DNA of 64,000 nt from positions 102,668 to 166,667 of the forward strand of contig JAHZIX010000041.1 of NCBI GenBank assembly GCA_022601195.1. Reading direction: 5' to 3'. The notes beneath the pieces were generated by a model. That model did no database searches. It saw only the letters and a list, made by a program, of their open reading frames with translations, and was not told where the DNA came from. The DNA is from Deltaproteobacteria bacterium (GTDB lineage Bacteria > Acidobacteriota > Thermoanaerobaculia > Multivoradales > JAHZIX01). A program made the translations under genes and the position numbers. Positions 42,208 through 64,000 of the stretch are shown one piece after another. Each line of letters starts with the position of its first letter. The stretch's first letter is position 1.

Positions 42208-42414
42208 CTATCTGTCACCACCCCCGAACCACCCGAAGGCGAGACTGCTAAGGTAGAGCAGAACCCCAGCTCCGATCAACACTCCTCCACCGAGAATAAA
42301 GGCAACAAAAGCCAGGGGATGGTTCCCGAAGAGAGTCAGGGCCTCCACCAATAGGCCGGCGACAATGCAGACGGCAGCGGCGAGTAGAGGCTTGTGGGGA
42401 TGGGGCAACTTCAT
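42208..42414 (-). CDS. small 2-TM membrane protein, translationally coupled to the cymA-like gene
   Basis: Start ATG at 42414 overlaps the cymA-like stop (ATGA). Encodes MKLPHPHKPLLAAAVCIVAGLLVEALTLFGNHPLAFVAFILGGGVLIGAGVLLYLSSLAFGWFGGGDR. Confidence 0.45.
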   Translation of the reverse strand: MKLPHPHKPLLAAAVCIVAGLLVEALTLFGNHPLAFVAFILGGGVLIGAGVLLYLSSLAFGWFGGGDR

Positions 42415-43019
42415 GACGACCCTTCCAGAGACCACTTCTCGAGGCCGTCCAGCTCCTCTACCGCGTGCACGAACTCGTGACATTCCAGGCAGGAGGTCTC
42501 GTCGGTGGTGAGCTCCGCCCTAATGTCGGCATGGAACTCCGCTTCCTCGAAGGACCTGGCGCCGCCGTGGCAATGCAGGCACTCGCGGTTGCGATACGGC
42601 TCATAGAGCTCGATGGGCTCCCCTGGGGTACCGAAGTAGTTGACCCATAGGTGCTTGACTCCCGCCACCTTGGCCTGCAGGTCACCATACATGGTGTAGT
42701 GGGTATGACAGGTGAAACAGGCGTGTTCCCGCGACACCAGGCTGTTCTGAAAGTGCACCGCCGGCAGATACTCCCGTTCTTCCAGCTGGAGACTTTCCCC
42801 ATAGGGTTCCATGACATGGCAGGAAAGGCAGAACTCCGTGGTCTTGGATTTCTCCAGGTGGAGGTTGGCTCCGAAGGCCAGTGCCAACACCGGCAGCAAA
42901 AAGAGGGCCAAGAAGGTCAGGATCCGACCGCGAGTTCCTGCCACCAGGGAGGGACGCCAGACCAGCGCGGCCGCTAGCACAACCGAAAGGGTGATGAGGG
43001 ATAGCAGGACCGGTGTCAT
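42411..43019 (-). CDS. NapC/NirT (CymA-like) membrane-anchored tetrahaem cytochrome c quinol dehydrogenase
   Basis: N-terminal TM helix, then four CxxCH motifs (CLSCH, CFTCH, CLHCH, CLECH) with NapC/NirT-like spacing. 202 aa. Start overlaps the upstream cytochrome stop (ATGA). Confidence 0.85.
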   Translation of the reverse strand: MTPVLLSLITLSVVLAAALVWRPSLVAGTRGRILTFLALFLLPVLALAFGANLHLEKSKTTEFCLSCHVMEPYGESLQLEEREYLPAVHFQNSLVSREHACFTCHTHYTMYGDLQAKVAGVKHLWVNYFGTPGEPIELYEPYRNRECLHCHGGARSFEEAEFHADIRAELTTDETSCLECHEFVHAVEELDGLEKWSLEGSS

Positions 43020-43426
43020 GGCTCCGGCACCAGACCGACAAGCCAGTCTACGATTGCCTGGAGCTCTTCATCAGTGCCCTTGAACTCCTTCTTGTGCTCT
43101 TTGTCTTCTAGGGTCTCCTCTCGCCTCAGAAAGGCTGCCAACCAATTCCCTCCTCGCTCTGCTCCAACGGTGCTGAGATCGGGGCCTCGCAACTTCGCAG
43201 ACTTTGCCTTGGCCTCCACCTCCGCCACATCCACCGAGTGGCAGAGTTGGCACTTCAATGCCAGAAAAACCTCTTTGCCATCGCCAGTAGGATCCTCGAC
43301 TCCTTCGTCAACCACAACAGCGAGTACTTTGCTCGCACCGAGGTTCAGAAAAAGCGAGAAACAAAGGAATGCCGTGACAGCGAACCCTTTTGAGGATGCA
43401 GCAAAAAGTCTCTCGACCGCTCTCAT
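43016..43426 (-). CDS. monohaem class-I c-type cytochrome (MtoD-like), periplasmic
   Basis: Start ATG 43426 preceded by GGAGAAGGAGG. Signal peptide MRAVERLFAASSKGFAVTAFLCFSLFLNLGASKVLA. Single CQLCH haem motif. Confidence 0.75.
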   Translation of the reverse strand: MRAVERLFAASSKGFAVTAFLCFSLFLNLGASKVLAVVVDEGVEDPTGDGKEVFLALKCQLCHSVDVAEVEAKAKSAKLRGPDLSTVGAERGGNWLAAFLRREETLEDKEHKKEFKGTDEELQAIVDWLVGLVPEP

Positions 43427-43730
43427 CGCGAGCCTCCTTCTCCAGCTGATCGTAGACACCAATCTGTATTGCTGACAGTAGCCGCCGACTTCCATCTCAA
43501 CCACACCCCAGGGACTAGGCGATCCCCCTACTTATGGGTAGGCATGAGCCTGCCCCAGGAAAACCTCGGGCCACCCCAGGGACTGTTCTCTCCACGGCCA
43601 AGGAGCGATAGAAATGGGCCAAGACATCAGAAACCTCCGTTTCCGCATCAACGAATGCTGGACCGCTTCCCCGGGTACCCGAGGTTTGGCCCGCCAAGCC
43701 GAGCAAGCGATAGAGAGCAAGAGGTGACAC

Positions 43731-44696
43731 ATGGGATGGAATCTACGTCGATCTTTGGCCGCCTTGGGCATGAGTGTCCTCGTCGTGGCAGGACTGCCAT
43801 GGCTCGGCCCGGGTAGTCCTAGCTGGGCAGATGAGAAGCCGCAAGAGGTAATTCCGGGAGAGGAAGCTACCGCTGAGGCCGCTGGCTACGTGGGCTCAGA
43901 TTTCTGCGCCAGCTGTCATGAGGGCTACGAAGAAAAGCTTGCTGAGACTCCCCACGGAAGGTCCGGATTCGGCGCCCTTTCCAGCCGCGGCTGCGAAAGC
44001 TGCCACGGTCCCGGCAGCCTGCATGTCGAAGATCCGGAAATCGTCACCAACCAGCCTCGCCTCTACGCTCTCCCAGCGAAAGAACAGAACGCGGTTTGCC
44101 AAACCTGCCACGAGGGCTCCAATCGATTCTTCTGGCAAGGAGGGCGTCACGAAACTCGCGGCCTGTCCTGCCTCAGCTGCCACAGCGTTCACTCCTACGA
44201 GGTAGAGAAGGGGCAGCTCAACGCCGTGAATGAAACGGAACAATGCTTCACCTGTCACCAGGATGTTCGGGCAGAAACCTGGAAGACTTCCCACCACCCC
44301 ATCCGCGAGGGAAAGATGTCGTGCAGTGACTGCCACAACCCCCACGGCAGTCAATCGGACAAGATGATCACCGCCGCTTCCGTGAACGAACAATGCTATA
44401 GCTGTCATGCAGAGAAACGAGGGCCCTTCCTTTGGGACCATCCACCGGTCCGCGAGAACTGCGCCAGTTGTCACACTCCTCACGGCTCGAACCATCTCAA
44501 GCTGCAGAAAACCTCGGTGCCCTATCTATGTCAACAATGCCATTCCAACACCCGGCACCCGGGGACGCTCTATGACCGCTCAACCCTGGCGGACGGCACT
44601 CGACCGAGCAACCGTGACTTCAGCCGCGCCTGCCTAAACTGCCACGGAGCGATTCATGGCAGCAACCATCCCTCCAGCCCCTACTTGGCTCATTAG
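43731..44696 (+). CDS. periplasmic decahaem c-type cytochrome, MtrA/MtoA/PioA (DmsE) family
   Basis: 321 aa with signal peptide. Ten CxxCH motifs (CASCH, CESCH, CQTCH, CLSCH, CFTCH, CSDCH, CYSCH, CASCH, CQQCH, CLNCH). Size and haem count match MtrA/MtoA. Confidence 0.9.
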   Translation: MGWNLRRSLAALGMSVLVVAGLPWLGPGSPSWADEKPQEVIPGEEATAEAAGYVGSDFCASCHEGYEEKLAETPHGRSGFGALSSRGCESCHGPGSLHVEDPEIVTNQPRLYALPAKEQNAVCQTCHEGSNRFFWQGGRHETRGLSCLSCHSVHSYEVEKGQLNAVNETEQCFTCHQDVRAETWKTSHHPIREGKMSCSDCHNPHGSQSDKMITAASVNEQCYSCHAEKRGPFLWDHPPVRENCASCHTPHGSNHLKLQKTSVPYLCQQCHSNTRHPGTLYDRSTLADGTRPSNRDFSRACLNCHGAIHGSNHPSSPYLAH

Positions 44697-44708
44697 GAGG
44701 ACCAGACC

Positions 44709-46982
44709 ATGAAGAAATACAGGTTTTCGACGCTGCGAGCCCTGCCGGCAGCCCTGATTTTGCTAAGCCTGCCCTCCGGAGCGCCTTGGCTGGCCGAAGA
44801 AGAGACTTTCCGGCTGAGCCTGGACTCCATCTCTTTCGGATTCTTGGAGACCGATGTAACGACAGACTCGGCAAAGTTCCAGGAGTACCGAGATATAGGA
44901 AGCGGTTTTCAGCTGACCGACCTACGCCTGCGGGGGATCGGCGCCAACGGCGACCGAGTTCTGACCCTGACCGCCGACAACGTGGGCCGGGACGATGCTC
45001 GCTATGGTTTCTCCTATGGGATGTCCGGAAAGTACTCTCTGGAAATCGACTACAACAAGATCCCGCACCGCTTCGGCAATAATGCGACCCTGCTTTGGAA
45101 TCGCACGGGTCCTGGAACCTGGGCCATCTCAGACGCGGTTCAAAGCCAAATTCAGGGCGCCTTGGAGGATCGATTCGCCCTCGACCGAAGTGGTGTCAAC
45201 TTCCCTTTCCTCAGCGCTGTGCTGGCCCCCCATCTGAGCGCCGCCAACAAGAGCGACCTCGGACTCCAGCGGGACCGAACCCGCGTTACCCTCGAGCTGG
45301 GTAAGCTGGGGCACCTCGCTTGGACCGCCGAGGTGCGCCACGAGAACCGGGATGGACTGCGGCCATTCGGCGGCGACTTTGGTTTCAACAACGCTCAGGA
45401 GATCCCAGAGCCCATCGACTACGACACCACCGATGCGGAGGTCCGCGGCGAGTGGAACGGGGCGAAGGGAGGGGTGAACTTCGGCTACCGTTACTCCACC
45501 TTCGAGAACGACATCAGTACGCTGGTCTGGGACAATCCGTTTCGCGGCTCCGACTCCACGGATCCGAGGGCCTACTTGGGTCCCGGCTTCCTCTCCATCA
45601 ACGGCCCCACCCAGGGTCTCGTCGACCTGGCGCCGGACAACGAGGCCAACCTCGCCTTCGTCTCGGGCCGCACCAAACTGGGCGCTGGCTGGTGGCTCAA
45701 CGGCACCCTCAACTACAACGTCATGACCCAGAACGATCCCCTGCTGCCCTACACCCTGAACTCAGCCATCCAGGGCATCGACCACGAGACCGGCACCACC
45801 TTTGACGCCGCGGACCCCAACAACCTACCGGTGCGTAACGCCGACAACGAGGTTGAGGTCCTGAGCCTCGCCGGCAATGCCGGCACCCGTTTCGGTGACG
45901 ATTGGAAGCTCACTTTCCGCTACCGTTACTACGACTACGACAACACCTCGCCCCGCATCGAGTTCCCGGGCTACGTACGCATGCATTCAACCTGGCAAGA
46001 GGTCCCCCGCATCACGGTGCCCTATAGCTATACGAGGGACGACCTCGGCGCCGAGGTCGCCTGGGAGGCTACTTCCAAGACCACCCTGGCCCTGAGCTAC
46101 CGCCTATTGAGCTGGGATCGCGAGTTCCGGGAGACGGAGAGTACCGACGAGGACATCCTCGAGCTGACCCTCGACCAGCGCCTCAGCTCCAAGGCGACAT
46201 TGCGGGCCGGTTGGGAAACGGGAACCCGCTCCAACGATGGCTACGAGGTCGAGGCACAGGAGCTCACCTTCCTGGAGCCGGAAGGCATCAACAACCAGCC
46301 GGGGCTGCGAAAGTTCACCCAGGCCGCCCGCGACTTCGATGACTACGACCTTTCCCTGAATCTCTTCCCGACCCCCGAATGGAACGTCATCTTCGGGTAC
46401 TCCGGCCGGAACGAGGACTACCCGGACAGCCAATTCGGGCTGATCGCCGACGACATCCAGCAGCTTAACTTCGAGATCGGCTACACCCCTGGGGCCGGAT
46501 TCGGCTGCTACCTCTTTGGCCACCGGGCCGACCGCGACGTCCTGCAACGCGCCCGCCAGTCTGGAGGCACCCTCTCCACAGACCCGCGCAACGACTGGCA
46601 AGCGGACCTAGAAGAGACCATCGACACCTGGGGCTTTGGCATCAACGGCGAAAGGGATCATTGGTTTTGGGATGCCTCTGCCCGTTGGTCCAACTCCGAC
46701 GGCGAAGCGGATTTCTTCACACCGGCTGGGGGTAGCCCTTCGTCGGCGGTGGACTTCGACAACTATGAAGACATCGAGCTGCTCGCCTTTCACCTGAAGG
46801 TGCGCTACGACATCCGTGATGGCGCCTCCGTGGGCCTCTCCTACCTCTTCGAGGACTACACCATCGACTCCTTCATCCTTCAGGGCCTCCAACCCTACCT
46901 GCCCTCGGCTCTCCAGCTAGCAGCCAGCAACGGCAGCTACGAGGGCAACGTCATCGGACTCCATCTGAAATTCGCTTTCTGA
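44709..46982 (+). CDS. MtrB/PioB-family decahaem-associated outer-membrane beta-barrel protein
   Basis: Starts 12 nt after the decahaem gene. 757 aa with signal peptide MKKYRFSTLRALPAALILLSLPSGAPWLA. Abundant alternating aromatic/hydrophobic-polar strands (YSLEIDYNKIPHRFGN, TLALSYRLLSWDREF, GLSYLFEDYTID). C-terminal ...GLHLKFAF ending in Phe is the usual OMP barrel signature. No haem motifs. Confidence 0.75.
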   Translation: MKKYRFSTLRALPAALILLSLPSGAPWLAEEETFRLSLDSISFGFLETDVTTDSAKFQEYRDIGSGFQLTDLRLRGIGANGDRVLTLTADNVGRDDARYGFSYGMSGKYSLEIDYNKIPHRFGNNATLLWNRTGPGTWAISDAVQSQIQGALEDRFALDRSGVNFPFLSAVLAPHLSAANKSDLGLQRDRTRVTLELGKLGHLAWTAEVRHENRDGLRPFGGDFGFNNAQEIPEPIDYDTTDAEVRGEWNGAKGGVNFGYRYSTFENDISTLVWDNPFRGSDSTDPRAYLGPGFLSINGPTQGLVDLAPDNEANLAFVSGRTKLGAGWWLNGTLNYNVMTQNDPLLPYTLNSAIQGIDHETGTTFDAADPNNLPVRNADNEVEVLSLAGNAGTRFGDDWKLTFRYRYYDYDNTSPRIEFPGYVRMHSTWQEVPRITVPYSYTRDDLGAEVAWEATSKTTLALSYRLLSWDREFRETESTDEDILELTLDQRLSSKATLRAGWETGTRSNDGYEVEAQELTFLEPEGINNQPGLRKFTQAARDFDDYDLSLNLFPTPEWNVIFGYSGRNEDYPDSQFGLIADDIQQLNFEIGYTPGAGFGCYLFGHRADRDVLQRARQSGGTLSTDPRNDWQADLEETIDTWGFGINGERDHWFWDASARWSNSDGEADFFTPAGGSPSSAVDFDNYEDIELLAFHLKVRYDIRDGASVGLSYLFEDYTIDSFILQGLQPYLPSALQLAASNGSYEGNVIGLHLKFAF

Positions 46983-59118: not shown

Positions 59119-60018
59119 TTAGTCGTCGTCCTCATCGTCATCATCGTCATCGCTGTCGTCGTCATCGGGTGAGGGTTCGGTACGATTCAAGTACCCAACA
59201 TCGATCCAGTTTGGGATTCCCGGCGCTGCAAAGCTATCTAGCTCGTTGAGAATGCCATCGCCATCTGTGTCAGCATCGGCCAGGTTGGAGAGGCCATCGC
59301 CATCGATGTCTTCGTCATCTGGGTTGATAACCCCGTCACCATCCACATCGTCATCGAAGATATTGTCGAAACCATCGCCATCGACGTCGTCGTCCACAGC
59401 ATTCTCCTGGCCATCCCCATCCACATCGTCATCCAAACCATTGTCCAAACCATCGTTGTCCGCATCCGGATCCATCAGATTCGGCATTCCATCCTGGTCG
59501 GTATCCGGCGCTCCCTTGAGCACCCTGTAGAAATATTGGTTGATGGCCGCGTTTAAGTAGTTGATGCGAAATAGAGCAGTCTGCGGGTCGACCTCGGCCG
59601 AAAGGATCATCTGTTCGACGGTCTCTCCCGCGTCAACCCGCAACTGAATTTCGCTAAGCGGCAAACCAAGTAACCGAGAGGCCATGGCTTCAGCGGCCAA
59701 ATCCTGAATGGGGTGCCTTGCGGAGTCCAACTGCTCCCGAGTCGCGCCCGTATGAGACGAGATCAAATAGTAGATCGGCGCGAGGCTGACCTCTTGGTGC
59801 ATATTGCGGGTCGCTCGGGTGACGCGCAGCCGTAAGTCTCTCAGCACTGCATCGACTTGGGGGAGACAAGCCGTAACGGTGGGTGTTTCCTGGGCTCCCG
59901 CACCGGGGGCGACAGCGAAAGGAATCAATCCAAGGGCAAGCCAGCTCAGCGAGGCTGCCCATGCCAAAGGAACCATTCGGCGATGGAAGAACTGAGTGTC
60001 ACCATGCTCTCTGGTCAT
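59119..60018 (-). CDS. secreted protein with TSP3-like calcium-binding Asp-rich repeats and poly-acidic C-terminal tail
   Basis: ATG 60018 preceded by GGGAGGA. Hydrophobic signal region LAWAASLSWLALGLIPFAVAPGAGAQE. Seven or more DxDxDGxxD repeats (DTDQDGMPN, DADNDGLDN, DVDGDGQEN, DVDGDGFDN, DVDGDGVIN, DIDGDGLSN, DTDGDGILN). Ends ...PDDDDSDDDDDDEDDD*. Confidence 0.7.
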   Translation of the reverse strand: MTREHGDTQFFHRRMVPLAWAASLSWLALGLIPFAVAPGAGAQETPTVTACLPQVDAVLRDLRLRVTRATRNMHQEVSLAPIYYLISSHTGATREQLDSARHPIQDLAAEAMASRLLGLPLSEIQLRVDAGETVEQMILSAEVDPQTALFRINYLNAAINQYFYRVLKGAPDTDQDGMPNLMDPDADNDGLDNGLDDDVDGDGQENAVDDDVDGDGFDNIFDDDVDGDGVINPDDEDIDGDGLSNLADADTDGDGILNELDSFAAPGIPNWIDVGYLNRTEPSPDDDDSDDDDDDEDDD

Positions 60019-60288: not shown

Positions 60289-60966
60289 CTACCCCGGATT
60301 CACAGCCAAGCGGTAGCCCACCCCTTTGACGGTTTGGATCAACTTCTGATCCGTGAGCTTTCCAACCTTGCTCCGCAGACGATGAATGAAGACTTCCACA
60401 ACGTTGGTCATAGGGTCGAAGTTGACCTCCCACACTTTCTCCAGCAGTCGCGCCCGCGGTACGACGGCACCTTGATGACGCAACAAATACTCCAATACGT
60501 CAAACTCCCTAGCCGACAGACGCAAGGGGAAGTCAGCAACCTGGACTCTGCGCTTATCCGGGTTCATGGCCAAATCACCAGCCCGCAGCCAAGCGGTGGC
60601 TGGACGAGCGCTCCGGCGAACCAAACTTCTCACCCGTGCTTTGAGCTCCGTAAACTCGAAGGGCTTGGCAAGATAGTCATCTGCCCCAGCATCGAGCCCC
60701 CCTACCCGATCTTCCATAGACGACCGAGCTGTCAGCACGAGCACCGGTGTTAGGCTCCCTTCCTGACGCCAGCGCCTGAGTAATTCCAGTCCCGTGGGCG
60801 GTGGAATATTGCGATCCAGGATCACCCCGTCATACTCATTGACGATCATCAGCTCGGCGGCGGTGTCGCCATCCCGTGCCAGGTCGACCGCATAGAGTTC
60901 CTCGCGTAGCTCCTCAGCCACGGCATCTCCAAGGTTTCGATCGTCTTCTACGAGGAGAATTCTCAC
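60289..60966 (-). CDS. OmpR-family two-component response regulator (receiver + winged-helix)
   Basis: MRILLVEDDRNLGDAVAEEL...D...LDRNIPPPTGLELLRRWRQEG...PVLVLTAR receiver domain; C-terminal trans_reg_C (LTAREFDVLEYLLRHQGAVVPRARLLEKVW...YRL). Confidence 0.9.
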   Translation of the reverse strand: MRILLVEDDRNLGDAVAEELREELYAVDLARDGDTAAELMIVNEYDGVILDRNIPPPTGLELLRRWRQEGSLTPVLVLTARSSMEDRVGGLDAGADDYLAKPFEFTELKARVRSLVRRSARPATAWLRAGDLAMNPDKRRVQVADFPLRLSAREFDVLEYLLRHQGAVVPRARLLEKVWEVNFDPMTNVVEVFIHRLRSKVGKLTDQKLIQTVKGVGYRLAVNPG

Positions 60967-61051: not shown

Positions 61052-61729
61052 CTATGGCTCTTCACTGACCAAGCGGTACCCCACTCCCTTGACCGTCTCG
61101 ATCAACTTGTGGTCGGAATATCGCTGGATCTTCTGCCGCAACCGATGTATCAATACATCGACCACATTGGTAAGTGAGTCGAAAGTGGAATCCCAGGCAT
61201 GCTCGATCAACTCACCCCGAGAGATCACCTCCCCGCGGCGAGCCAACAGATACTCCAGCAGAGCGAATTCTTTCCCCGAAAGCTGAATGAGCTCACCGGA
61301 CACGCGTACCTCTCGCAGGGGTCGGTTCATCGACAGGACACCGGACCGGAGGGGAGAGTACATCGGTCTTTCCCCTCGTCGCAGTAGGCTACGGACTCGA
61401 GCCATCAGCTCAGAGAATTTGAATGGTTTTGCCAGATAGTCGTCGGCCCCCGCGTCCAAGCCGACAACACGCTCTTCCAAAGATCCTCGTGCAGTCACCA
61501 TGAGAACCGGCGTTTCTCGACCTTCGGCTCTCCAGGAGCGCAACAGCTCCAACCCGGTAGGGGAGGGAATCTGATCATCCAAGACAACGCCATCGTATTG
61601 GGTACACGACATCATCTTGGCAGCACTACTGCCGTCGACTACCAGATCCACCGTATAGCTCGTCTCTCTGAGCTCTTCTGCGATGGCGACCCCTAGAGTC
61701 CGATCGTCTTCGACTAGAAGAATTCTCAT
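61052..61729 (-). CDS. OmpR-family two-component response regulator (tandem paralogue)
   Basis: Same architecture and length (225 aa) as the gene at 60289..60966; roughly 60% identical by eye (MRILLVEDDRTLGVAIAEELRETSYTVDLVVDG...). Confidence 0.9.
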   Translation of the reverse strand: MRILLVEDDRTLGVAIAEELRETSYTVDLVVDGSSAAKMMSCTQYDGVVLDDQIPSPTGLELLRSWRAEGRETPVLMVTARGSLEERVVGLDAGADDYLAKPFKFSELMARVRSLLRRGERPMYSPLRSGVLSMNRPLREVRVSGELIQLSGKEFALLEYLLARRGEVISRGELIEHAWDSTFDSLTNVVDVLIHRLRQKIQRYSDHKLIETVKGVGYRLVSEEP

Positions 61730-62134
61730 ACCCCGTCCTCCTCTACCTTTCCCGTGACCTGCGAGCCCCTCCCAGTCGCCCCGAAACAGATACCCACCTT
61801 GCTTAGCTACTCGAGGCGACCGAATCCTTCGCCTCGAGCAGAATTACCTGAATCCGACCCCCACCTCGACCTCGACTCGACCTAGAACGTCCCCGGGTAA
61901 CAACACGAATCACACTGGGAAACCTGGAACTACCAGAGGTCTAGCACCTATTCCTGAAAGCAAATTTTTCTTAAATAGAACACCCTAGCGACGCTCCGAA
62001 TTCTGCTTCACGGCTGTAGATCTCCTCGCCAGGAAACCATCTCCGATTGGATTGCCGGTCCCCACCCCAAAAGTGAGCCGTTAATGCTCTGTTCATCTGC
62101 TCTTCGCTATGTTGCACCTGGATTTGGAGATCCT

Positions 62135-63607
62135 ATGAAGAGCACTTTGAACAGACCTATCACCACACTCAGCCTGCTCGTGAGCGCCTGTCTTTTCTCG
62201 ACGGCTGTTATCTCTGAAGAGACCAACAAAAACCCCCATGGGAACCTCCGTTCGGAATGCAGTGACTGCCATAGCACTTCCGGGTGGTCTCCATTGATAG
62301 AGCCTCTCCTCTTTCAGCACTCCTCGACGAATTTCCCTCTCTATGGCGCCCATGCGACGACTGGATGTAACGAGTGCCACGGAGACCTTGACTTCTCAAA
62401 GACCGATTCCAATTGCTTTAGTTGCCATGAAGCCGAGTTCCAAAACGCCACCGACCCAGACCACAGCGACTTCCAAGGCATCTCCATCACCTGCGAAGAC
62501 TGTCATTCCGAAATCGCTTGGGAACCGGCAAACTTCGATCACGATTCCACGAGCTTCCAATTACGAGGATCCCACCGAACTACGACCTGCGCCGCCTGTC
62601 ACGAGGATGGCTACGTTGGAACACCCTCCGATTGTTTCTCTTGTCACCTAGCAGACTTTGACGGAGCCACCGATCCGGACCACCAAGCATTTCCCATCAC
62701 CTGTGAAGACTGCCATGCTGAAAACACTTGGAATTCTGCAGTTTTCGATCACAACGCCACCGCCTTTCCCCTGCGGGGTGCTCACCAAGCCGCTGACTGT
62801 GCTTCTTGTCACCGCGACGGGTTCGCAGGCACTCCCACTGATTGTTTTTCCTGCCACCAGGCGGACTTCGACGGAGCCACCGATCCGGACCACCTGGGCT
62901 TCCCCACTACCTGCGAAGATTGTCATTCCGAAAGTGCCTGGGAGCCCGCCAACTTCGATCACAACCTGACAGCGTTTCCTTTGAATGGAGCCCATCGCAG
63001 TCTCGACTGCCTGGCCTGCCACGGAGATGGCTACCAGGGAACTCCCACCAACTGTTTCTCCTGTCACCAGGCGGACTACGAGGGAGCCACCGATCCGGAT
63101 CACCGAGGCTTCCCCACTACCTGCGAAGACTGTCATTCCGAAAGTGCCTGGGAACCCGCTAGCTTCGATCACAACCTGACGGCGTTTCCTTTGGATGGTG
63201 CCCACCGCAGCCTCGATTGCCTGGCTTGCCACGAAGATGGCTACCAAGGCACCCCCACTGACTGCTTCTCTTGTCACCAGAACGATTACCAGCGAACCGA
63301 CGATCCTGATCACATCGCCGCCGGATTCCCCACCACCTGTGAGGACTGCCATAACACCAGCGATTGGGACGACACCGACTGGGATCACGACGACTTCTTC
63401 CCCATCTATTCGGGGAATCACCGTCGAGGCAGAGCCTGGACAACCTGTGAACAATGCCACGTCAGCCCAGGAAACTATCGTCATTTCGAGTGCATCGAAT
63501 GTCATGAGCACAACCGTTCCCGCATGGACAATGAACATCGCGGCATCGGTGGCTACCGATATGAAAGCCAGGCTTGCTTCAGCTGTCACCCAGATGGGGA
63601 TGACTAG
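62135..63607 (+). CDS. multihaem c-type cytochrome (about 19 CxxCH) built of repeated trihaem modules
   Basis: Start ATG 62135 with GGAG RBS; signal peptide MKSTLNRPITTLSLLVSACLFSTAVISEE. 19 CxxCH motifs. A module (FDHNxTAFPLxGAHxxxDCxxCHxDGYxGTPTxCFSCHQADFxGATDPDHxxFPTTCEDCHSExAWEPA) recurs about 5 times, with near-identical nucleotide copies at 62900-62950 and 63110-63160. Confidence 0.9.
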   Translation: MKSTLNRPITTLSLLVSACLFSTAVISEETNKNPHGNLRSECSDCHSTSGWSPLIEPLLFQHSSTNFPLYGAHATTGCNECHGDLDFSKTDSNCFSCHEAEFQNATDPDHSDFQGISITCEDCHSEIAWEPANFDHDSTSFQLRGSHRTTTCAACHEDGYVGTPSDCFSCHLADFDGATDPDHQAFPITCEDCHAENTWNSAVFDHNATAFPLRGAHQAADCASCHRDGFAGTPTDCFSCHQADFDGATDPDHLGFPTTCEDCHSESAWEPANFDHNLTAFPLNGAHRSLDCLACHGDGYQGTPTNCFSCHQADYEGATDPDHRGFPTTCEDCHSESAWEPASFDHNLTAFPLDGAHRSLDCLACHEDGYQGTPTDCFSCHQNDYQRTDDPDHIAAGFPTTCEDCHNTSDWDDTDWDHDDFFPIYSGNHRRGRAWTTCEQCHVSPGNYRHFECIECHEHNRSRMDNEHRGIGGYRYESQACFSCHPDGDD

Positions 63608-63633: not shown

Positions 63634-64000
63634 GTGAACGGACAATCTCTAACTCAGCTCGCACCTGCCGCACTGGTCTTTCTCGCCTTCAGCTCGAGCA
63701 TCCCCTCCTCAGCCTTGGCTCAGAGCGCTCAGCAAAAGGAGCTTCAGCCCGCCCCTCTGGAAGTTCAACAGATTGCCGCCGACCTGATTTACCTCAACGG
63801 AGGCCGTTCCCATGGATTGCAGGTCGGCAGTCGTCTCGAAGTGTTGCGTGGCCAGGAGAAGATTGGCGAAGTGGAGGTCGCATTCGTGACCGATCGTTCT
63901 GCCTCTTGCAGGATCATCGAAAGCTCTACCGCCTTCGAAGTAGGAAACAGGCTTCACTTAATCCAAACTTCCCAGAATTCTAACCAGGAGCCAACTGCTC
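63634..64000 (+). CDS. secreted hypothetical protein, N-terminal part (continues beyond window)
   Basis: GTG at 63634 preceded by GGGAGA (an in-frame ATG at 63619 is also possible). Signal-peptide-like LAPAALVFLAFSSSIPSSALAQS. Open to the window end. Confidence 0.45.
   Translation, partial: MNGQSLTQLAPAALVFLAFSSSIPSSALAQSAQQKELQPAPLEVQQIAADLIYLNGGRSHGLQVGSRLEVLRGQEKIGEVEVAFVTDRSASCRIIESSTAFEVGNRLHLIQTSQNSNQEPTA

Follow-up and report, generated by a model that had tools for sequence, protein, structure and literature searches.

What does a cytochrome with nineteen haem-binding motifs do for its host, and with which partner does it work? The question is raised by a stretch of 64,000 nucleotides, hereafter the window, from a genome deposited as Deltaproteobacteria bacterium and placed by GTDB among the Acidobacteriota (contig JAHZIX010000041.1, positions 102,668 to 166,667 of the forward strand). 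The gene lies near the 3' end of the window, and the initial annotation had linked it to an MtrAB-like module located 15 kb away. Our main finding is that this cytochrome has a partner of its own, a predicted outer-membrane β-barrel encoded directly downstream, and that the two probably (we put it at roughly 0.6) act as an outer-membrane electron conduit like MtrAB. The structural description and the pairing of cytochrome and barrel are held with high confidence. The family concerned is already known from bioinformatic work, and the dedicated-barrel context is more informative than the earlier MtrAB context. The features of the pair are as follows.

62135..63607, plus strand: gene for the 19-haem c-type cytochrome, 490 amino acids, six trihaem units plus one haem (open reading frame (ORF), motif count, Pfam, homologues and AlphaFold2 model).
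62135..62212, plus strand: predicted Sec signal peptide, about residues 1-26 (MKSTLNR, a hydrophobic stretch, then the conserved PHG).
62213..62464, plus strand: diverged N-terminal trihaem unit, with haems at residues 42, 78 and 94 (spacing 36 and 16 residues).
62465..63304, plus strand: four tandem 210-nt (70-residue) c7-like trihaem modules, residues 111-390 (Tandem Repeats Finder, repeat search and pairwise identity).
62465-62674, 62675-62884, 62885-63094 and 63095-63304, plus strand: bounds of these modules, each of 70 residues with three CxxCH.
63305..63607, plus strand: four-haem C-terminal cap and stop codon, with haems at residues 402, 438, 453 and 481 and an FPIYSG.H motif.
63634..64000, plus strand: 5' part (122 codons) of the barrel partner gene, with a GTG start, ending at the window edge; its product is P0145.

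The translation of 62135-63604 contains 39 Cys, 40 His and 2 Met, and its 19 CxxCH motifs in 490 residues reproduce exactly the count given by the initial annotation. By simple arithmetic, a shuffled cytochrome of the same Cys- and His-rich composition would be expected to hold about 0.25 such motifs. No CxxxCH, CxxxxCH or CxxCK is present in this translation, and the haem density is 25.8 residues per haem. The listed ORF (62084-63607, plus strand) contains a second ATG at 62135; starting at ATG 62084 would add 17 residues. At NCBI the same protein is represented by a version of 437 residues (P0011, K0U98_18290, 'MAG: Deltaproteobacteria bacterium') that begins at an internal TTG (around 62294), so that the signal peptide and the first CxxCH are missing; this deposited start codon is probably wrong. 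We prefer ATG 62135 as plausibly the likelier start, because it is preceded at 8-11 nt by GGAG and followed by a signal-peptide-like N-terminus. The SPase-I-type signal peptides of homologues likewise end a few residues before PHG, and the AlphaFold2 confidence (predicted local distance difference test, pLDDT) is below 50 over residues 1-33.

Six trihaem units and one haem account for the total (6x3+1 = 19), the cap being itself a trihaem unit (402, 438, 453) with one extra haem (481). A trihaem module of 65-70 residues repeated about five times, as first described, is therefore a fair account of what we resolve as four clean modules with degenerate units at the N- and C-terminal ends. Tandem Repeats Finder reports a period of 210 nt, with 3.8 copies and 75% matches, over 62489-63280, and the repeat search finds copies in register at 210-nt spacing. 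The last copies had been described as nearly identical, which holds for a patch of 40 nt (exact at 63120, with 2 mismatches at 62910 and 4 at 62490), but not over whole modules: DNA identity between modules 3 and 4 is 85%, their longest identical run is 23 nt, and they differ by 17 synonymous and 10 non-synonymous codon changes. All remaining module pairs show 65-70% DNA identity. With an identity of 88%, modules 3 and 4 are closer to each other than either is to any module of other proteins (78% at most); going by these sequence identities, their split postdates the separation from all sampled homologues. The duplication is thus in-gene, as had been proposed, but in absolute terms it is not young, being old enough to have collected many synonymous changes.

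A search of 5.8 billion proteins returned 6159 homologues of the cytochrome. All of the best 120 have the N-terminal unit and the C-terminal cap in common, and what varies between them is the number of intervening 70-residue modules. The N-terminal unit is conserved throughout the family with the consensus PHG..C..CH..W.P..F.H (alignment of 96 sequences), and the cap, whose alignment (A3) has 30 invariant columns, follows the consensus FPIYSG.H...C..CH...C..CH.H...C..CHP.G. Haem numbers proceed in steps of three, 86 of these best 120 homologues having 19, 22, 25, 28, 31 or 34. The central modules are often 96-100% identical within one protein and at most 78% identical to modules of other proteins, a within-protein likeness that is the sequence signature of lineage-specific tandem expansion. 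One of the two closest homologues with contigs (locus L001) has 8.7 copies of the 210-nt unit.

To follow the family through genomes, one genome per species was scanned with a pattern made from the cap alignment, the full-length alignment (A2) being too variable. At least 542 stretches in species-representative genomes of about ten phyla were confirmed by tblastn. The best 80 of these come from MAGs (metagenome-assembled genomes) of Acidobacteriota (Thermoanaerobaculia, Terriglobia, Bryobacterales), Calditrichota, Ignavibacteria and Zixibacteria, and further from Gemmatimonadota, Bacteroidota, Planctomycetota, Verrucomicrobiota and Krumholzibacteria. Deltaproteobacteria, to domains of whose metal-reducing members the arrangement was initially likened, are not typical hosts of the family; the best related genomes belong to Acidobacteriota, Calditrichota, Ignavibacteria, Bacteroidota and others. 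Gene neighbourhoods were counted over 81 related loci (L numbers below); longest-ORF maps of high-GC acidobacterial loci proved unreliable and were left out. Among the 49 complete capped cytochromes that adjoin a barrel, 43 have 3n+1 haems, within a range of 10 to 85.

The upper end of this range is occupied by single ORFs with 85, 61 and 58 CxxCH (L080 1872-8306, L053 3666-8309 and L062 3870-8297), from Bacteroidetes, Saprospiraceae and Ignavibacteria MAGs, each followed by a barrel gene. At its lower end, six loci (L006, L015, L025, L028, L033 and L041, mostly Calditrichota MAGs) carry an extra capped 10-haem cytochrome of 262-310 residues, placed between a cytochrome of 22 or 25 haems and the barrel. 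Such loci point to a cluster variant with three cytochromes.

Repeats of this kind raise the question of whether the haem number is real. The window does come from a metagenome-assembled genome, and close relatives have near-identical central modules in which collapse is possible, so one might suppose a collapse or expansion in a short-read assembly. We regard this as very improbable for the present gene, since its copies are too diverged: at 65-85% DNA identity, the longest run that they share (23 nt) is well below usual assembly k-mers. The reading frame is moreover intact up to the conserved cap, and 19 fits the 3n+1 series and recurs in some other loci. The same divergence qualifies the idea that the gene is prone to changes in haem number. 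The family does vary, in steps of three, but the window gene is not itself especially recombination-prone.

The protein class follows from domain searches. Cytochrome_C7 (PF14522) matches five stretches with 82.5 bits (cut-off 24.8, E=1.9e-23), and Cytochrom_CIII (47.2, cut-off 22.9) and Cytochrom_c3_2 (45, cut-off 25) also pass. The doubled-CXXCH model (Paired_CXXCH_1, PF09699) has no match in the cytochrome at E<=1, and does match the MtrA-like protein of the window at 3e-34. Of the two likenesses first suggested, the c7 type is therefore retained, and the doubled-CXXCH type is not. NCBIfam gave nothing above cut-off for the cytochrome, with below-threshold likeness to DmsE/MtrA (TIGR03508, 33.8 bits against a cut-off of 192.2), HmcA and TmcA. 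When the module profile was compared with the PDB, its matches were weak: HmcA (1z1n) at 1e-5, a nine-haem cytochrome at 6e-5, and, weaker than these, the Geobacter dodecahaem cytochrome GSU1996 (3ov0) at E=0.0019, in an alignment that spans the whole domain. The single cytochrome sequence gave only a spurious cyanovirin match. The AlphaFold2 model has a mean pLDDT of 80 with a predicted template modelling score of 0.44, the combination expected of a chain that is locally well defined yet elongated. At superfamily level, these profiles support a polymerised c7-type cytochrome of the electron-wire kind.

Histidine content points the same way. A profile built from 47 modules contains six invariant His per module, namely the three proximal ones of the CxxCH motifs and three distal ones; the only Met residues are the initiator and one internal residue, and the repeated modules have none. 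Taken together, these counts imply that all 19 haems are bis-His ligated. They also bear on whether the protein could be a catalytic multihaem enzyme of the HAO, octahaem or NrfA-like kind, which we consider extremely improbable. A high haem count, and nothing further, would favour such an enzyme, but none of the catalytic octahaem, HAO or NrfA families in Pfam or NCBIfam matches the cytochrome, CxxCK is absent, and the His suffice for 19 bis-His haems, so that no open site is implied. The preference of the initial annotation for an electron wire over an HAO or octahaem type is borne out, as only c7 and c3 models pass their cut-offs.

The second component starts 26 nt after the cytochrome stop, with the GTG at 63634, on the same strand and with no terminator-like site in the gap. 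Its full product, P0145, is known from NCBI (K0U98_18295, 591 residues, adjoining the cytochrome gene K0U98_18290) and has an N-terminus identical to the window translation. Used as a query, the window fragment of 122 residues found no homologues; the full-length L001 protein recovered P0145. In both L001 and L002, the two closest homologues with contigs, a gene of 556-590 codons without Pfam match lies directly 3' of the cytochrome and matches the window fragment, and in L001 its ORF overlaps the cytochrome stop. From an alignment of 53 sequences, AlphaFold2 models P0145 with a mean pLDDT of 82 as a signal peptide, a small β domain (43-109), a disordered linker (113-184) and 22 strands (190-591). 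The model confidently predicts a 22-strand outer-membrane β-barrel, and Foldseek returned outer-membrane barrels only, namely PapC/FimD ushers, OprD/Occ channels and AlgE, with template modelling (TM) scores of 0.3-0.45. Pfam and NCBIfam give no match even at E<=10. In the β domain, a lone Cys (C92) belongs to an SASC motif that is almost invariant, and the linker of about 70 residues that joins this domain to the barrel is rich in Pro, Glu and Ser.

Barrel and cytochrome belong together well beyond the window. Against 1.84 billion representative proteins, the barrel profile matched 2859 at E<=1e-3, of which 843 lay below 1e-30; a metagenome scan with the barrel as query returned distant relatives only. 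A barrel hidden Markov model matches in 73 of the 81 loci, always on the cytochrome strand and mostly at the 3' end of the cytochrome, and the two reading frames often overlap or nearly abut.

Other genes recur in these neighbourhoods, and they recall a cluster known as PCC3. This porin-cytochrome cluster was defined bioinformatically, as a hypothetical complex in Proteobacteria, by a porin, two haem-dense, repeat-built multihaem cytochromes (MHCs) and an inner-membrane protein with two WX3HX13H motifs and SGXXG (He, Barco, Emerson & Roden 2017, Front Microbiol 8:1584, PMC5566968). Its cytochromes have median haem numbers of 34 and 21, with a maximum of 85; in L. cholodnii the porin is predicted to have 22 strands, and the smaller cytochrome has repeats of about 66 residues (PMC5566968). 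In Sideroxydans lithotrophicus ES-1 the order is inner-membrane protein (Slit_1446), 24-haem cytochrome, 28-haem cytochrome and porin (Slit_1446-1449; PMC8788666, PMC11429942). Arbour et al. (2020) described clusters, labelled 'OmbB-like', in which a porin follows MHCs with 24 and 49 haems (PMC7399161), and in the models of Hoover et al. (2023) the PCC3 cytochromes are long and linear (PMC9900912). Our related loci contain 48 ORFs of about 300 residues with two WX3HX13H motifs 163-180 residues apart and SGxxG always between them. This signature inner-membrane protein is present in 48 loci, in some of them downstream of the barrel, and in 41 loci there is a further cytochrome, which in most cases has 20 or 23 haems. 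Based on this membrane-protein signature in related loci, the porin, the haem-dense repeat cytochromes and the matching gene order, we assign the window pair to a PCC3-type family, with the caveat that the likeness is to the layout and description of the prototypes.

One cultured organism carries the whole arrangement. Emticicia oligotrophica DSM 17448 (L082, Bacteroidota) has the cluster on its plasmid pEMTOL02 of about 100 kb (NC_018749.1, 78197-90781), in the order ccsA, a 281-residue membrane protein with both motifs, an NAD(P)-binding protein, a 23-haem cytochrome, a 40-haem capped cytochrome that is 43% identical to the window protein, a 538-residue hypothetical protein in the barrel position, likened to the barrel by gene position alone, and a GW-domain protein. 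The plasmid location suggests horizontal mobility. Two further kinds of gene recur: inside clusters, one for a Fer4/Pyr_redox_2 or NAD(P)-binding oxidoreductase (L002 11607-12983; L082 4164-5486), and downstream of the barrel, one for a protein with TPR or GW domains. Both are possible additional conserved components, outside the quoted PCC3 definition.

How would such a pair work? Our proposal is that the barrel would hold, or be threaded by, one of the conserved ends of the cytochrome (probably the one formed by the C-terminal cap), and that the variable run of c7 modules would form a continuous haem wire leading off the membrane to the outside, into the periplasm or both. The end placed in the barrel and the side to which the wire projects are guesses. 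Haems are spaced at about 1 nm each in the GSU1996 and MtrA structures; scaled in this way, 19 haems would make a wire of about 15-19 nm, and relatives with 58-85 haems would be too long for the periplasm and would project outside. The number of modules would set the reach of the wire and would change by unequal recombination in the 210-nt array. Insertion and deletion of CxxCH domains between near-identical strains have been described in the 24- and 49-haem MHC clusters (Arbour et al. 2020, PMC7399161).

The barrel may also, or solely, export the cytochrome, a role made conceivable by its usher-like structural matches and its N-terminal domain with linker. A bolder version, which we offer tentatively, is a self-sufficient two-protein conduit, in which a c7 nanowire runs through the 22-strand barrel, the barrel serves as both translocon and anchor, and length is adjusted in three-haem quanta by unequal recombination.

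Several observations weigh against the conduit and its PCC3 affiliation. Foldseek found no structural match for the cytochrome model in the PDB, a blank to be expected of a haem-packed fold with little secondary structure. The barrel matches are generic and led by usher translocation pores, so that a pure export role is conceivable. Only two of the four PCC3 components, cytochrome and barrel, are seen in the window, and the 62 kb upstream contain neither a second large cytochrome nor a PCC3-type inner-membrane protein. Since the locus of the closest homologue, L001, likewise shows cytochrome, barrel and TPR protein only, a reduced two-gene form of the cluster, as found there, is possible. Finally, both ES-1 PCC3 clusters are down-regulated on Fe(II) (PMC8788666), and neither electron transfer nor complex formation has been experimentally shown for any family member, PCC3 included.

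Alternatively, the cytochrome might stay in the periplasm as an electron store, capacitor, wire or relay like GSU1996, and the barrel might have another role, such as that of an unrelated porin or, for a fraction exposed at the surface, solely that of a translocon or usher. The c7-polymer architecture is common to periplasmic cytochromes of the GSU1996 type, usher pores top the structural matches of the barrel, whose N-terminal domain and linker look periplasmic, and capacitor roles have been proposed in the literature (PMC7399161, PMC9900912). We nevertheless judge this rather unlikely, given the tight synteny of cytochrome and barrel across phyla, often with overlapping or near-abutting frames, and members with 58-85 haems whose estimated length far exceeds the width of the periplasm.

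It remains to situate the pair among the other genes of the window, four of which make up the Mtr/Pio-type module.

42411-43019, minus strand: NapC/NirT-type tetrahaem cytochrome (family search).
43016-43504, minus strand: monohaem cytochrome c (family search).
43731-44696, plus strand: MtrA/PioA-like decahaem cytochrome (family search and haem count).
44709-46982, plus strand: MtrB_PioB porin (E=1e-97).
61730..62134, no strand assigned: intergenic region, presumed promoter, between a divergent response-regulator gene and the cytochrome operon.

The MtrA, MtrB, NapC/NirT and monohaem genes at 42411-46982 are genuine, and the window lacks a PCC3-type inner-membrane protein, so that a shared quinol dehydrogenase is conceivable; the 19-haem cytochrome might on these grounds extend the electron path of the module into one longer periplasmic or extracellular chain, as the initial annotation proposed. 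We find this improbable. The 15 kb in between are filled by unrelated genes on both strands (a subtilase, Dus, a methyltransferase, an AbgT transporter, an FG-GAP protein, an M4 peptidase, an Asp-rich protein and two response regulators), none of the 81 related loci has an MtrB homologue, and MtrA gave a single marginal match among them. The cytochrome moreover has its own barrel, unrelated to MtrB: hhalign gives it a probability of 0.7% against the MtrB of the same window. The two systems look independent; that they would share, at most, an inner-membrane quinol dehydrogenase is speculation, as is the idea that the NapC/NirT-type tetrahaem protein (42411-43019) donates electrons to the 19-haem cytochrome.

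No sigma-70 consensus was found in the presumed promoter region 61730..62134. Divergent from the cytochrome operon are two tandem genes for OmpR-type response regulators (60289-60966 and 61052-61729, both on the minus strand; 62% mutual identity), neither with a histidine kinase gene beside it; related regulators are found near the homologous clusters in L002, L006 and L063. Farther away, 59119-60018 (minus strand) encodes a secreted-looking protein of 299 residues without Pfam match; it ends in a poly-Asp tail and has numerous repeats of the DxDxDG type, which resemble calcium-binding ones.

If the function proposed for cytochrome and barrel is true, the organism has two unrelated outer-membrane electron conduits, one of the Mtr/Pio type and one of the PCC3 type, and the gene belongs to one of the most widespread porin-cytochrome families without experimental function. 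Should the tentative two-protein nanowire also prove right, many phyla that are not known for extracellular electron transfer would have, in a covalently continuous wire, an alternative to polymerised cytochrome filaments such as OmcS. Both genes are currently annotated as 'hypothetical protein' or 'cytochrome c3 family protein'. The family can be recognized and tested by its 3n+1 haem series, its conserved cap and the strict linkage of the barrel gene, and E. oligotrophica DSM 17448 is a cultured host that carries the cluster.

Among known systems, the cytochrome itself resembles GSU1996 in its build: tandem c7-type trihaem domains of about 70-80 residues, a linear haem chain and PF14522. GSU0592 and GSU2210 are further c7-type polymer cytochromes of Geobacter. 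GSU1996 has one His-Met haem per domain, whereas the window modules have no Met and six invariant His each; the cap with its extra haem and the dedicated barrel are not known for the Geobacter proteins.

With MtrAB, PioAB and MtoAB, the pair shares a gene for a multihaem cytochrome followed by one for a large outer-membrane barrel, a similar haem density and, in the proposed mechanism, a haem chain insulated inside the barrel. The components are not homologous, however: the DmsE/MtrA score is 33.8 against 192.2, and the barrel has no MtrB_PioB match. MtrB has 26 strands in its solved structure, whereas 22 are predicted here, and the ten haems of MtrA are fixed, whereas the family of the window cytochrome ranges from 10 to 85.

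The OmbB-OmaB-OmcB Pcc of Geobacter (Shi et al. 2014, PMC4245776) is similar in that a porin of 18-22 predicted strands is clustered with multihaem cytochromes; those in the periplasm contain 5-14 haems and are not built as polymers of c7 modules (PMC4245776). Two other sets of clusters were considered and set aside as different systems, both having cytochromes of 8-13 haems: the 'EET1-4' clusters from peat (bioRxiv 10.64898/2026.05.27.727921) and the porin-MHC clusters of Verrucomicrobia (PMC5615132).

The PCC3 cluster is the comparison under which we file the pair. Here as there, a barrel lies directly 3' of a haem-dense repeat cytochrome, with 25.8 residues per haem in the window against 26-30 in two PCC3 examples, and the L. 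cholodnii porin and ours are both predicted to have 22 strands. The porin-adjacent cytochrome of ES-1, with 28 haems, fits the 3n+1 series, and the maximum is 85 in both sets. In related loci, that of Emticicia included, the inner-membrane protein occurs together with a further MHC (about 20-24 haems), and the gene order is that of ES-1; this second cytochrome has about 21-27 haems in PCC3 and 20 or 23 in our loci. The hosts differ: the published PCC3 clusters come from Alpha-, Beta- and Gammaproteobacteria, and most of the relatives assembled here from Acidobacteriota, Calditrichota, Ignavibacteria, Bacteroidota and others.

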